IMG/VR virus record: IMGVR_UViG_2706795806_000001
Location: 1-64,000 of that record
Source of the DNA: a virus
Lineage: Duplodnaviria > Caudoviricetes
Strand: one strand, 5' to 3'
Length of the DNA stretch: 64,000 bases
Under the pieces are notes generated by a model. The model was not told where the DNA came from. It saw only the letters and a program-made list of their open reading frames with translations, and did not search any database. Of this stretch, positions 9,282 to 64,000 are shown one piece after another. Positions within the stretch are counted from its first letter, which is position 1, and each line of letters opens with the position of its first letter. The translations under genes were made by a program, and so were the position numbers.

Positions 9282-9591
9282 TGGTGTACATGCAGTTATT
9301 AGTTCGCAAGGTAATATCTTAGGATTTACTGATAATTTTAGTATCACAATAGGTTCTCAGAAGGAAAAAGATTACAGCTATCGTATTGATTTAAGAAGTA
9401 ATTTAGCATTCTTGAAGCGTGGACAGGAGCTAGTAAACCTTAAATTTAAAGGTAATGTGAATATCAAAAAATCTAAAGTTGTGTTTACTGAAGATGGTGA
9501 TTTTGTATTTTCTATCAAAGGTGTTGTTTTTAAACAAACTAAGTCTCTAAAAGAGATGACTACACACCTTTCTGGTCTACTGGAACTGTAA
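9274..9591 (+). CDS. Hypothetical protein
   Basis: GGAG RBS, overlapping the upstream stop. Confidence 0.55.
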   Translation: MLNGVHAVISSQGNILGFTDNFSITIGSQKEKDYSYRIDLRSNLAFLKRGQELVNLKFKGNVNIKKSKVVFTEDGDFVFSIKGVVFKQTKSLKEMTTHLSGLLEL

Positions 9592-10205
9592 TGGATTTTG
9601 GTATGGAGGAGTTGGAGAGCTTAGGAAAACTCCCTCATGAAGACCTTAAAGTATTTCTGACTTGCACAAGCCACATATTCCCTACAGAGGCGAAGTTCAT
9701 GGCTTGGGTTCGTTCAGGATTACGACAAGGGCTTTGGAATAAGCATCCAGTAAAGATGGAGACATTGAAAGAAAGTCGTAGGAAGATTAAGAACCCTAAC
9801 CCAAATCCAAGAAAAGGAGCTGAGTTAGTTTGGGGATTTGATTGTGCTTGCTGTGGCAATTCATTCAAGCAGACAGATGTTGAGGTTGACCACAAATCAG
9901 GCGAAAACTCATTAAAGAGTATTGATGATCTTGTCGTGTTTTTCAAAAAACTTGTGTTTGTAACTCCCCAAGATTTACAGATTTTGTGTAAGGGTTGTCA
10001 TAGCATCAAGACATATTCGGAACGGTATGGAGTCTCGTTGGTTACAGCAGAGGCTACAAAGAAGGCTATTGAGGTTTTAAAGACAGATAAGTATAAGAAA
10101 GAGTTGGTTAGACTTGGAGTTACAAAATTGATTCCAAAGAACAAAGCTCGTGAAATTCTTGTAAATCTGTACGAACAGGAGATTACAGAAGGAGTAAAAG
10201 ATTGA
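9591..10205 (+). CDS. HNH endonuclease
   Basis: CACC...VDH...LQILCKGCH..KT pattern. Confidence 0.8.
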   Translation: MDFGMEELESLGKLPHEDLKVFLTCTSHIFPTEAKFMAWVRSGLRQGLWNKHPVKMETLKESRRKIKNPNPNPRKGAELVWGFDCACCGNSFKQTDVEVDHKSGENSLKSIDDLVVFFKKLVFVTPQDLQILCKGCHSIKTYSERYGVSLVTAEATKKAIEVLKTDKYKKELVRLGVTKLIPKNKAREILVNLYEQEITEGVKD

Positions 10206-12269: not shown

Positions 12270-12294
12270 AATCCAGCTTCGGCTGGATTTTTTA
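12270..12294 (+). terminator. Intrinsic terminator
   Basis: AATCCAGC-TTCG-GCTGGATT plus T-tract. Confidence 0.8.
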
Positions 12295-12312
12295 GTTTAT
12301 AGGAGAAAAGAA

Positions 12313-15243
12313 TTGGCAGAAAAAGTGTATACATCAATTATGATGGAAGAGACAAACTCTTACGTCGAAAAGTTTCCAGAGTTTATTGAGGCTATCAAGT
12401 TTCAAAAAGAGGATTTATTTTGGACGCATGAAGAGATTAAGATTGAGAAAGATGAAGCAGACTTAAAAGAAAATATCCATGAGGCTGGTAAACATGGTTT
12501 AATGTTCAACCAACGACTTTTTACAAAGTATGAAGATGTCATCGGTAATGACTATTGGATTGGTGTTGTACATAAGAGATACAAAAACTCAGAGATTCGT
12601 CGTCTGGCTATTTGTTTTGCTGATGTAGAGAACAACATTCACTTCCCATTCTACCGTAAAGTAAATGAGGTTATGGGAACACATACAGACGAGTTCTATG
12701 ACGCATTTGAGACTGATCCTGTACTAATTGAACGTGTTAAGTTTATGGGTGATCTTGTAGGCTCTAAAGACACACTGGCATCAATGGGTGGATTTGCATT
12801 CATGGAAGGGGCTGTACTATTCACTGCTTTTGCTTTCATTAAATCTTTTGGTGTAAATGGTCAGACATTTATCCCTAACTTGATTGCTGGTATCAACATG
12901 TCAATCCTTGATGAAAACTTCCACATGCAAACAGCTTGTGAGATTTTCAAGAAGCAGTTGGAGTTAGAGGGTCGTAGTGATGCAGATTTACGAGAACTGA
13001 AGCGTAAGATTTTTGCACATGCTGAAAATGTAGTGGCACATGAAGATTTAATCGTAGATGCTATGTTGGCTAAAGGTGATGTACCTTATGCTTCTAAAGT
13101 GGAACTTAAAGCTTTTGCTAGACATCGTGTGAATAAAGTTCTTGTGAATCTTGGATTCCCTGAGTTAGCTACATTCGACGAGACTGGAGACACAATCTCT
13201 GAGTGGTTCTATAAATTCATGGAAGCATTTACTCACAATGATAACTTCTATGCTCGTGGTCGAAACTACAAGAAAGAGTTCTCAGCTATTGATTTTGATA
13301 TCTTCTCTGATAAAGAGTATGAGGATGTCTTAGCTATGATCCCTGACGAGTATCTGGATCAAATGGGTATTGACCTGAACAAGAGTTATGAAAAGAATCT
13401 TGATGAGGTATTGAAGGATGAAATCAAGGCTTCTCAAGGTAGCTTAGGTTTGACTTTGGAAGAGGAAGAGCAGAGAGTTGATCCTCTATATGTTCCTGAC
13501 TTCAGTAAAGAGCGTAAAGAGTTGCAAGAGAAAGGGTTAGCACCTGAATGGATGGCAACGGCTGGATGGCAGTTAATGAAGAAGAAATACTTGAATGCTG
13601 GATCAAAAACTCCATTTGACCAATATGATCGTATTGCTAAAACATTGGCTCAGTATGCACCAGATGTCTACCCTGATTGGTGGAATGAGATTGATTACTG
13701 GAAGGGATTAACTTGGGAACAAGCATTCTTTAAAGTAATGTGGGATGGCTTCTTGAGTCCTTCAACCCCTGTCTTGTCAAACACTGGTACGAATTTAGGT
13801 ATGTCTGTATCTTGTTCTGGTGGTGTAACAGAGGATAGTGTTGCTGGATTCTACGACCAACGTAAGATCAATGCCTTGCTAAGTAAAGAAGGTTTTGGAA
13901 CTACAATTGACCTCTCAGAAGTTCGTGGTCGTGGTATGCAGATGAAGGGTGGTATTGCAAATGGTGCGAAGCCTGTAGCTGAGATGTTTGTAGATGATGC
14001 CTTAAAGATTAGTCAAGGATCACAACGTCGAGGTGCTGGAGCTTGGTACTACCATGCAACTGGACAAGACTTCCATGAATTGATTCACTTCTTAGAGTAT
14101 GATACAGATGGAAATAATGGTGGTTGGAAGATTCCTAATGAGTTGATCAACCGAGCAATGTGTGGAGATATGGAAGCTGTTTTACGTCTTTGTAAGATTG
14201 TTACTACTCGTCACCACGTAGGTCTTGGTTACATGTTGTTTGAAGATAAGATTAATGTCTTACGTCCTCAAATGTATGTTGATCATGGCTTGATGGTTAA
14301 ATCTTCAAACTTGTGTACTGAGATTACATTATTCAGTGACAAAGACCACACATTTACTTGTGTACTTTCAAGTGAGAACTTGACACGATTTGATGAACGT
14401 CCTGAAATGCTTGCTTTCGTTGGTACTGTATTCCTTGACTGTGTTGCTGAAGACTTTATTCAGAAAGGTCGTAAGGTAGCAGGGCTAGAGAACGCTGTAC
14501 GCTTCACAGAGAAAGGAAGAGCGTTAGGGTATGGAACTATGGGCTTTGCATCTTATCTCATGGAGAAGGGCATTGAGTACGGTTCTATGGAGTCTATGTG
14601 GAGAAACGAGGAAATCTATAAAACGATTAACCGTGAATCTAAGGAAGCTTCTCGTTGGATGGCTGTTGTACTTGGTGAGCCAGAATGGTGTGTAGGTTAT
14701 GGAGTTCGTAACACACATACAATGGCAATTGCACCAACTAAGTCTACTGGGTTGTTAATGGGTGGAGATTCTGAAGGTATTAACGTACCGCCAGCATTTG
14801 TATTTGCTCAAGATACTCCAGCAGGGACTGTATATCGTATTGATCCAACATTCTTACGATTGTTGAAACGTAAAGGGTTATATGTCATTGGAGAGGATAA
14901 ACGAATCACAGATGAGACAGATGCGTTACTTAAACGTATTTCAGATCAACTTGGTAGTGTTCAGACTCTTACAGATGTATTGACCGATGAAGAACGTGCT
15001 GTGTTTAAAACAGCTTACGAGATCAACCAGTTCAAGCATATTGATCTGTGCGCTCAACGTCAGAAGTATATTGATCAGGCTCAGTCTATCAACGTATTTA
15101 TTGCGAACATGGAAGCTAAGGATATTATGCGTTTGTACTTGTACGCTATGCTAAATCCAATGATTCTTTCTTTGTATTACCACACTGGAATCCGTGATTC
15201 TCGTATTGGTGAAAACAAGAATGAGTGCGAATCTTGCATGTGA
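12313..15243 (+). CDS. nrdBA: Class I ribonucleotide reductase, beta (NrdB) and alpha (NrdA) subunits fused in one ORF
   Basis: N-terminal ferritin-like part (FW..EI, E74, E106/H110, Y114, E165, E201/H204); C-terminal alpha part (SPSTP, SC, NLCTE, APT, YY, CESC); no stop between; TTG start with AGGAG RBS. Confidence 0.9.
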   Translation: MAEKVYTSIMMEETNSYVEKFPEFIEAIKFQKEDLFWTHEEIKIEKDEADLKENIHEAGKHGLMFNQRLFTKYEDVIGNDYWIGVVHKRYKNSEIRRLAICFADVENNIHFPFYRKVNEVMGTHTDEFYDAFETDPVLIERVKFMGDLVGSKDTLASMGGFAFMEGAVLFTAFAFIKSFGVNGQTFIPNLIAGINMSILDENFHMQTACEIFKKQLELEGRSDADLRELKRKIFAHAENVVAHEDLIVDAMLAKGDVPYASKVELKAFARHRVNKVLVNLGFPELATFDETGDTISEWFYKFMEAFTHNDNFYARGRNYKKEFSAIDFDIFSDKEYEDVLAMIPDEYLDQMGIDLNKSYEKNLDEVLKDEIKASQGSLGLTLEEEEQRVDPLYVPDFSKERKELQEKGLAPEWMATAGWQLMKKKYLNAGSKTPFDQYDRIAKTLAQYAPDVYPDWWNEIDYWKGLTWEQAFFKVMWDGFLSPSTPVLSNTGTNLGMSVSCSGGVTEDSVAGFYDQRKINALLSKEGFGTTIDLSEVRGRGMQMKGGIANGAKPVAEMFVDDALKISQGSQRRGAGAWYYHATGQDFHELIHFLEYDTDGNNGGWKIPNELINRAMCGDMEAVLRLCKIVTTRHHVGLGYMLFEDKINVLRPQMYVDHGLMVKSSNLCTEITLFSDKDHTFTCVLSSENLTRFDERPEMLAFVGTVFLDCVAEDFIQKGRKVAGLENAVRFTEKGRALGYGTMGFASYLMEKGIEYGSMESMWRNEEIYKTINRESKEASRWMAVVLGEPEWCVGYGVRNTHTMAIAPTKSTGLLMGGDSEGINVPPAFVFAQDTPAGTVYRIDPTFLRLLKRKGLYVIGEDKRITDETDALLKRISDQLGSVQTLTDVLTDEERAVFKTAYEINQFKHIDLCAQRQKYIDQAQSINVFIANMEAKDIMRLYLYAMLNPMILSLYYHTGIRDSRIGENKNECESCM

Positions 15244-15294: not shown

Positions 15295-15326
15295 AGGGAC
15301 ATATCCGAAAGGGTGTGTCCCTTTTC
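15295..15326 (+). terminator. Intrinsic terminator overlapping the start site of an upstream promoter
   Basis: AGGGACATATCC-GAAA-GGGTGTGTCCCT-TTT; TTGACA-17-TAAACT lies immediately upstream. Confidence 0.7.
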
Positions 15327-15345
15327 TGTTTTTGGAGAGTTTAAT

Positions 15346-16032
15346 ATGATTGACAATATCTACATTTTAAGAAAGGCTAACCGTAATCCGTGGCAGTTAA
15401 GTTCTTTTGACGGAGTTCCAGTAAAAGAAGGTTCAAAGATAAAAGTTTTAGAGTCTGTAGTATGTTACTTTGATCCTAGAATAACTGGTGTTGTTGAAAT
15501 TGAAGTTGATGGTGTAGCGTACAAGATTCCAGAAAATCACCCGATAAGTTGGGCATATTTCACAGATGATATGGTAGATTGTGTTGAAGAGTACGGTATT
15601 CAACGACTTGAGGATTTTAACTCTTCAGGAGTTGTAGGTGTAAGTATGTGTGAAACTGAATATTTAAATCAAGGTGAAAATGGAAAGCGTCTACAAGAAT
15701 CTGTAGATCGTATTCGAAAGAATGTTAGTCTTGTTGTGACTAAACCACTTGAAGATCGTTACAATGATTGGATTTTAGAAAACATTCATGTATACGAACT
15801 GTTTTGTAAGTTCACATTACAGGCTATTGAGTCTGGGAAGAAAAAGATTTCTCATTGGCTTATCGTAAACCGATTGCGTTGGGAAGTTGAGATTGAAACA
15901 AATGGCATGTGTGAAGAGGATAAGGATTATAAGATCAGTAATGATTACATTGCATTCCTTGCACGAGATTTCATTAAGGATTATCCTCAACACAGTGAAA
16001 TATTTAACTTGAAACAAATGAAGCGTGTGTAG
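15346..16032 (+). CDS. Hypothetical protein
   Basis: GGAG RBS, 228 aa. Confidence 0.6.
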   Translation: MIDNIYILRKANRNPWQLSSFDGVPVKEGSKIKVLESVVCYFDPRITGVVEIEVDGVAYKIPENHPISWAYFTDDMVDCVEEYGIQRLEDFNSSGVVGVSMCETEYLNQGENGKRLQESVDRIRKNVSLVVTKPLEDRYNDWILENIHVYELFCKFTLQAIESGKKKISHWLIVNRLRWEVEIETNGMCEEDKDYKISNDYIAFLARDFIKDYPQHSEIFNLKQMKRV

Positions 16033-63943: not shown

Positions 63944-64000
63944 ATGAAAGTGTTCCAAAATGTATTAGTTAAGTTTGGTGCTACGTGGTGTAACCCATGT
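63944..64000 (+). CDS. Thioredoxin (5' partial)
   Basis: MKVFQNVLVKFGATWCNPC with WCxPC motif; runs off the window. Confidence 0.8.
   Translation, partial: MKVFQNVLVKFGATWCNPC

Follow-up and report, generated by a model that had tools for sequence, protein, structure and literature searches.

One viral reading frame joins the beta and alpha sequences of a class Id-like ribonucleotide reductase

Introduction

Can the two subunits of a class I ribonucleotide reductase (RNR), beta (NrdB) and alpha (NrdA), be carried in a single natural polypeptide? This question is raised by a gene found in a 64,000-nucleotide stretch of viral DNA (Duplodnaviria; Caudoviricetes), corresponding to positions 1 to 64,000 of the IMG/VR record IMGVR_UViG_2706795806_000001 and hereafter referred to as the window, in which one open reading frame (ORF) contains both nrdB and nrdA. 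The active alpha2beta2 form of class I RNR, which supplies the precursors of DNA, is weak and short-lived, and it is the association of the subunits that gates radical transfer, over a distance of ~35 Å. Efforts to trap this complex have employed mutants, inhibitors and engineered tail fusions (PMC11067019; PDB 8vhu, 6w4x).

A natural one-chain enzyme as compact as this one (976 amino acids, no ATP cone) would suit structural and kinetic work on subunit docking, would test the need for free subunit exchange in turnover, and would provide a case study of an obligate hetero-oligomer becoming a single gene. I found no description of a natural NrdB-NrdA fusion in the open literature, a search that did not cover key class Id papers. 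The analysis reported here makes it probable that the gene encodes a working aerobic (class I, class Id-like) RNR, with NrdB (residues 1-331) and NrdA (residues 393-976) in one polypeptide.

Results

The gene is intact and contains both subunits in full

The region 12313-15243, on the plus strand of the window, was identified by ORF listing and translation as a single ORF of 976 amino acids with 0 internal stops (feature coordinates are listed in Table 1). Its product matches the profile phrog_30939 almost from end to end, with protein residues 2-976 aligned to positions 2-977 of this 977-position profile (2231 bits). Translation is predicted to begin at a TTG codon, which is also used in four of the five gene copies compared, the fifth having ATG. 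The GC content of the gene (38-39%) is uniform with that of its flanks. The source virus genome, of 99,730 bp, is rated complete by CheckV, and the fused gene is the sole RNR in it.

Pfam identified Ribonuc_red_sm (PF00268) at residues 23-285 (9e-30), Ribonuc_red_lgN (PF00317) at residues 417-496, and the Ribonuc_red_lgC barrel (PF02867) extending to residue 945 (9e-65). No match to the ATP cone (PF03477) was obtained by Pfam in the fused protein.

The beta part possesses the features that define an NrdB, namely the ferritin-like fold, six metal ligands (E74, E106, H110, E165, E201 and H204), a tyrosine after the first histidine (Y114, at the radical-tyrosine position, 4 residues after H110), and a tail with the pathway tyrosine and an alpha-binding end. 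The closest solved beta structure is 9dws (4e-18), followed by the NrdBi of Leeuwenhoekiella blandensis (5e-15) and that of F. johnsoniae (8e-11), both distant similarities. One departure was found: E106 and H110 are separated by three residues (E-x3-H) throughout the clade, where the usual spacing is E-x-x-H. The metal site (window 12526-12642, residues 72-110), with its glutamate as first ligand and its V-E-x-N-I-H motif, is common to fused and unfused phage relatives. Since the unfused relatives have the E-x3-H spacing too, it concerns the cofactor, not the joining of the subunits. The tail contains an invariant tyrosine, Y319, equivalent to Y356 of E. coli and aligned with the tail tyrosine found in the beta subunits of L. 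blandensis and F. johnsoniae, while Y313 is Tyr or Phe among relatives.

In the alpha part, all catalytic residues are intact: N666, C668 and E670 in the NLCTE loop, C501 (VSCSG), C683 (FTCVLSS), and the Y955-Y956 pair (SLYYH). Together with the matches to the ten-stranded alpha/beta barrel and the C-terminal cysteine pair, the N-x-C-x-E loop, the two further cysteines and the Y-Y pair complete the set of features expected of an NrdA. The N-terminus of the alpha part, LYVPDFSKERK (residues 391-402), aligns with MSKVRDFSKERK of the unfused alphas. The closest solved alphas are the class Id proteins of Actinobacillus ureae and Flavobacterium johnsoniae (E-values in phmmer of 2.5e-76 and 1.3e-69), and structural comparison agrees with this, with template modelling (TM) scores of 0.92-0.95 to 6dqw and 6dqx in Foldseek, and a VIA match to 6dqx with a Z of 47.1 and a root-mean-square deviation (rmsd) of 2.0 Å over 512 residues. 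With its short length, its missing ATP cone and 6dqx and 6dqw as its best PDB matches, the alpha part has the character of a class Id alpha.

The initial annotation of this locus, made from the DNA letters alone, had described an uninterrupted 976-residue beta-alpha ORF with a compact NrdA without evident ATP cone, and had named N666/C668/E670, Y955-Y956 and the terminal CESC in it. All of this is borne out. It had also located the Y356 equivalent within DNFYARGRNY; the tyrosine is indeed there, the precise residue being Y319 and not Y313.

The fusion is retained in a group of Acinetobacter phages

The same single gene is found in ~21 Acinetobacter phages in GenBank, with genomes of ~100 kb and belonging to the genus Saclayvirus, where the protein is 72-77% identical to that of the window; examples are vB_AbaM_P1 (UJE34710.1), TAC1, phiAbaA1 and B09_Aci01-1. 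A large protein collection contains seven clusters of fused proteins (959-976 residues, 72-86% identity), and in a tblastn search one piece covers residues 6-976 in both P1 and Acba_22. Querying IMG/VR with the junction peptide returned two loci only, and the census in that database extends to this query.

In Saclayvirus genomes the gene is labeled "ribonucleotide reductase", "large subunit", "alpha subunit", "deoxynucleoside kinase" or "hypothetical", and the word "fusion" occurs in none of these labels. With labels of these kinds in more than 20 genomes (alpha or large subunit, kinase, hypothetical protein), a survey run automatically would score these phages as being without nrdB. In a 2026 survey of Acinetobacter phages, the RNR of Saclayvirus is given as one gene family, without remark on the fusion (PMC12893723).

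Mean pairwise identity across the seven fused clusters is 79% for the beta core, 84% for the beta tail (residues 300-331) and 80% for alpha, against 55% for linker residues 332-358 and 29% for linker residues 359-392. Both enzymatic parts are under strong purifying selection, with a ratio of nonsynonymous to synonymous substitution rates (dN/dS; Nei-Gojobori method, five diverged DNA copies) of 0.04-0.09 in the beta core and 0.03-0.09 in alpha. On the sequence evidence, the fusion cannot be the product of accidental read-through or of an error in assembly.

A metagenomic protein of 829 residues (P0127) was considered as a third architecture but not accepted as such, being probably a recombinant or a chimera made in assembly. 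Its first 218 residues are 93% identical to the NrdB part of the window protein, and are followed by ~600 unrelated residues with no Pfam match.

The linker combines a conserved extension and a variable spacer

The linker spans residues 332-392 (61 residues), and its two halves differ in conservation. The first ~10 residues (SDKEYEDVL) are already present after the DFDIF motif in unfused betas of the clade, whose consensus S/T-D/N-x-x-Y-x-D-V-L matches residues 332-340. The following IPDEYL..GIDLN segment and the spacer rich in Lys and Glu are confined to fused proteins, and a homology search returned no match to the linker outside the fused clade. An origin from an intein or homing endonuclease was rejected, as Pfam finds only the three RNR families and the linker is without outside match.

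Where synonymous sites are unsaturated, dN/dS in the linker is 0.06-0.34, the conserved half giving 0.08-0.19 in the two measurable pairs, and the changes in linker length (10-12 residues) are all in frame. The initial annotation had taken the linker to be an acidic stretch of ~60 residues, and evolved coding sequence as opposed to a read-through stop. The latter view is upheld, the linker being in frame in five DNA copies and seven protein clusters with dN/dS below 1, and relatives keep the fusion, as the Saclayvirus phages and clusters described above show. The linker is also acidic in the window protein (18 D/E versus 6 K/R), but acidity is not a conserved property, because the spacer half of Saclayvirus is mixed or basic; nor are the first ~10 residues new.

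The fusion derives from an overlapping or adjacent nrdB-nrdA pair, and a second one arose independently

The nearest unfused relatives belong to Acinetobacter phages Phab24, Ab3-TPeters and MD-2021a and to Edwardsiella phage vB_EtaM_ET-ABTNL-9. In these, nrdB (341-351 residues) is followed by nrdA (579-581 residues), with an overlap of 8 nt or 1 nt, or a gap of 13 nt, between the two genes, and a glutaredoxin/thioredoxin gene directly after nrdA. A maximum-likelihood tree of 56 alpha domains places the fused proteins in one clade (Shimodaira-Hasegawa-like approximate likelihood ratio test, 100), sister to the unfused phage alphas. The fusion goes back to the common ancestor of the window phage and Saclayvirus, in which an overlapping or adjacent nrdB-nrdA pair was joined. 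The event would have involved the loss of the stop and start signals, and the gain of ~50 new residues.

The unfused betas run 13-36 residues past DFDIF, and the alpha-binding motif was therefore internal before the fusion. Enzymes of this clade can therefore not depend on a free C-terminal carboxylate.

Among the best 150 matches of an exhaustive profile search, one further beta-alpha chain was identified, P0201, with 1019 residues in the order ATP cone-NrdB-NrdA. It is carried on an 85-kb contig with phage-like content, and has four fused relatives (P0373-P0376) of 1023-1398 residues, one with an intein. The nearest unfused alphas of this lineage are haloarchaeal, and the linker of ~30-35 residues that follows its beta tail is unrelated in sequence to that of the window protein. 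Several well-supported branches of the tree lie between this second clade and the first, so that two independent fusion events are needed.

Other genes on the P0201 contig (Logan, 85 kb) specify a CsrA homologue and a protein longer than 1478 residues that has both Rpb2 and Rpb1 RNA-polymerase domains, and the contig is likely from a large phage. Within the same lineage, P0374 has an intein-type domain (PF14528). Separately, P0025 and other unfused alphas of 718 residues contain ~140 extra residues directly after the active-site N-L-C (NLC|TE), which are intein-like.

Structure prediction suggests that the beta tail and extension dock on alpha

AlphaFold2 (AF2) modeled the full chain with a mean predicted local distance difference test score (pLDDT) of 89.6 and a predicted TM-score (pTM) of 0.69, from an 84-row alignment in which a few terminal residues of the single-subunit rows may sit at the wrong end. 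Residues 322-370 are predicted with pLDDT values of 81-96, and residues 308-321, 374-394 and 961-976 fall below 50. When the beta core was removed (residues 300-976 only, pTM 0.88), residues 320-369 were still modeled with pLDDT values of 78-92. The start of the spacer (residues 359-369) has a pLDDT of ~85, and the remainder (residues ~370-392) is predicted disordered, with values of 31-45 over residues 370-390. These models suggest that the tail motif and the extension (residues 322-369) dock on alpha. In VIA and Foldseek, no solved chain covers the region below about residue 390 (model residue ~91), which is expected and says nothing on the fold of the extension.

These observations can be combined in a working model. 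Two chains would associate by their usual alpha2 and beta2 interfaces, forming a (beta-alpha)2 assembly equivalent to the alpha2beta2 holoenzyme, in which EFSAIDFDIF and the conserved extension (residues 322-369) may sit docked on the body of alpha. The Y319 segment (residues 308-321) would stay flexible, as it does in two-subunit enzymes, and because of this flexibility the beta core must presumably still swing transiently onto alpha before the radical can pass to Y955/Y956 and C668. The only role of the spacer, disordered over residues 370-394, would be to lead the chain back to the N-terminus of alpha. The tether would thus fix a 1:1 stoichiometry and keep the partner locally at very high concentration, and would not lock the active state.

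A broader proposal is that the tether and the alpha-docked extension keep the beta tail permanently bound and the holoenzyme always assembled 1:1, making the protein a natural stable form of the transient alpha2beta2 complex, selected at least two times in viruses needing a fast, unregulated supply of deoxynucleoside triphosphates (dNTPs). I advance this tentatively, as one possibility that falls short of being the probable one.

Alternative explanations

Several points weigh against a working one-chain enzyme of this kind, or against the mechanism proposed for it. The E106-x3-H110 spacing departs from the usual one; no glutaredoxin gene directly follows the fused RNR gene, unlike in the unfused relatives; and the docking of residues 322-369 on alpha is read from AF2 confidence values alone, in models whose placement of the two domains relative to one another is uncertain, as the full-chain pTM indicates. 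Expression as a single chain of ~110 kDa is inferred from the reading frame, and so are the quaternary structure, a tail that docks in cis, the kind of metal cofactor and any advantage under selection inferred from sequence and models. Finally, a purely neutral fusion would give the same sequence picture.

This last possibility is the most serious of the alternatives, and I regard it as a real, if minority, prospect. It supposes that a small deletion or indel at the stop/start overlap joined the genes of two proteins that already bind each other, with a fused enzyme that acts just as the two-subunit form does, the linker as tolerated filler and no effect on regulation or fitness. The ATGA-type or 8-nt overlaps of the unfused relatives mean that one small event could have joined the frames, the spacer is poorly conserved and variable in length, and fused and unfused forms coexist among related Acinetobacter phages. 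It accounts less readily for a linker that gained ~50 residues, the first half of which is conserved (55% identity; dN/dS 0.08-0.19) and is modeled as ordered and docked, for the persistence of the fusion while synonymous sites became saturated, and for a second, independent fusion.

It is improbable that the gene yields two proteins after all, either by internal initiation before alpha or by proteolysis in the spacer. The spacer is predicted to be disordered and would hence be accessible to proteases, and the codons of its EEEE motif form a purine-rich stretch at ~13456-13475. Against this, none of the start codons ATG, GTG or TTG is found in frame behind a Shine-Dalgarno motif between residues 383 and 403, and a product initiated at the first ATG (M414) would lack ~20 conserved residues of alpha (DFSKERKELQ...), which the unfused alphas retain. 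Two separate products would also not need a frame conserved across the linker, as is the case here.

A further reading assigns the tether an adaptive role in counter-defence or insulation from the host: a constitutive RNR that does not exchange subunits with the host and outruns defences that deplete dNTPs. It is attractive in that an enzyme without ATP cone cannot be switched off by dATP, that the genome has a self-contained nucleotide-supply module (with MazG-like and thymidylate-synthase-like genes), that further nucleotide enzymes are listed for Saclayvirus (PMC12893723), and that both fusion events are found on virus-like contigs. However, the ATP cone is absent from class Id-type alphas in general, fused or not; no defence-related neighbour is linked to the RNR gene, nor does any comparative signal connect the fusion with a defence system; phages with the closest unfused enzymes share the kind of host and the genomic neighbourhood; and mixing with host subunits is already unlikely with so different a beta tail. 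I consider this role doubtful, and constitutive activity, immunity to host subunit mixing and robustness against dNTP-depleting defences are speculation.

That the gene is a decaying pseudogene, or an artefact of assembly or sequencing, is scarcely credible: although the virus record of the window is derived from a metagenome and one metagenomic relative, P0127, is clearly chimeric, the same architecture is found in isolated, independently sequenced phages (among them vB_AbaM_P1, TAC1, phiAbaA1 and B09_Aci01-1) and in a full-length PHROG family, with strong purifying selection and all catalytic residues intact.

Genomic context

The neighbourhood of the fused gene includes genes for an exonuclease, an HNH endonuclease, a DNA polymerase exonuclease subunit, a MazG-like protein and a thymidylate-synthase-like protein. 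The HNH endonuclease gene (phrog_1985, window 9591-10205) occupies the same place in Saclayvirus P1, and is flanked on one side by an unassigned ORF of 107 residues, which follows the exonuclease gene, and on the other by the gene for the DNA polymerase exonuclease subunit. An ORF of 124 residues at window 11891-12265 matches phrog_3506, "thymidylate synthase" (1.4e-34); this name looks doubtful, because 124 residues are far too short for ThyA or ThyX. The hairpin that follows the RNR gene overlaps the GTG start listed for the next ORF (15313-16032), whose true start is, given this overlap, probably further downstream.

The only candidate reductant found for the RNR is a thioredoxin-like protein with a WCNPC motif, whose gene lies 49 kb from the RNR gene and is cut by the end of the window.

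Table 1. Position of the fused reductase gene, its parts and associated features in the window.
Feature	Position	Strand	Basis
Terminator-like hairpin with T run, separating the RNR gene from the gene before it	12270..12289	+	Sequence inspection
Shine-Dalgarno AGGAG	12301..12305	+	7 nt 5' of the TTG start
Fused nrdB-nrdA gene	12313..15243	+	976 codons and stop, TTG start; full-length match to PHROG 30939, 2231 bits
NrdB core, ferritin-like, residues 1-307	12313..13233	+	PF00268; PDB beta matches 9dws, 6sf4, 6cwo; AF2 pLDDT ~90
Flexible beta-tail segment with Y319, residues 308-321	13234..13275	+	pLDDT <50 in both AF2 models; aligns to L. blandensis and F. johnsoniae tails
Canonical alpha-binding beta end (EFSAIDFDIF), residues 322-331	13276..13305	+	Ends where the L. 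blandensis NrdB C-terminus ends
Conserved linker half (extension), residues 332-358	13306..13386	+	Alignment; pLDDT 86-96 with or without the beta core
Variable spacer, Lys/Glu-rich, residues 359-392	13387..13488	+	25-36 residues in relatives; 29% pairwise identity; dN/dS 0.28-0.47
NrdA catalytic domain without ATP cone, residues 393-960	13489..15192	+	Pfam, phmmer, Foldseek TM 0.92-0.95, VIA Z 47.1
Flexible alpha C-terminal tail with redox-shuttle pair C972/C975 (CESC, 972-975)	15193..15240	+	C-x-x-C nearly invariant in the alignment
Terminator-like hairpin, 12-bp stem and T run, 3' of the RNR gene	15295..15322	+	Sequence
Start of 87-residue thioredoxin-like gene (WCNPC), cut by the window end	63944..64000 (genome 63944-64207)	+	Pfam glutaredoxin 21.6 bits, just below cut-off

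Comparison with known systems

The fused RNR of Saclayvirus (PHROG 30939) shares with the window protein the beta-linker-alpha order and the gene neighbourhood. The window protein is 8 residues longer than the Saclayvirus protein (968 residues), and its spacer is acidic where that of Saclayvirus is rich in Lys and Arg. The unfused nrdB-nrdA-grx arrangement of the Acinetobacter and Edwardsiella phages is the next closest, with a beta 61-66% and an alpha ~58-61% identical to the window protein, the same beta-then-alpha order, the E74 and E-x3-H motifs, the DFDIF tail, a short extension, and a neighbourhood with MazG-like and thymidylate-synthase-like genes. It differs in having two genes, with the grx/trx gene right behind them, and in being without the 50-residue linker. 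The metagenomic ATP-cone-NrdB-NrdA fusions have in common with the window protein the beta-to-alpha order and a linker after the beta tail, but are of independent origin and only ~31% identical to it.

Among characterized enzymes, the class Id RNRs (NrdAi/NrdBi; F. johnsoniae, A. ureae and L. blandensis; PDB 6dqw, 6dqx, 6cwo, 6sf4/5olk) resemble the window protein in their alpha of ~570 residues without ATP cone, in the glutamate at the first metal position (E74 here), in a beta tail ending ~12 residues past the pathway tyrosine, and in the beta-then-alpha gene order. They differ from it in having two separate subunits, and an E-x-x-H motif where the distantly similar window beta (E-values 5e-15 to 8e-11) has E-x3-H. 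In class Id an Mn2(IV/III) cofactor serves directly to initiate the radical and there is no stable tyrosyl radical; of the features of the window protein only E74 fits this, and its cofactor may be Mn2 or Fe2. The beta-then-alpha order is common in NrdAi (PMC9669993) and, given the two independent fusions, these data suggest that this order in class Id-type operons predisposes to fusion.

A partner or accessory function has been found covalently joined to an RNR subunit in several other systems. These include the Grx-ATP-cone-NrdB fusion of Facklamia ignava (PMC6187632), the ATP-cone-NrdB fusion of L. blandensis (bioRxiv 10.1101/190033) and the NrdD-NrdG fusion of eukaryotes (PMC3019208), as well as engineered E. 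coli chimeras of alpha and beta's C-terminal tail, in which the tethered tail still inserts into alpha (PMC11067019; PDB 8vhu). In none of these is a natural class I beta joined in its entirety to a complete alpha, and the E. coli constructs carry only the last 35 residues of beta, attached to the C-terminus of alpha, in the order opposite to that of the window protein.

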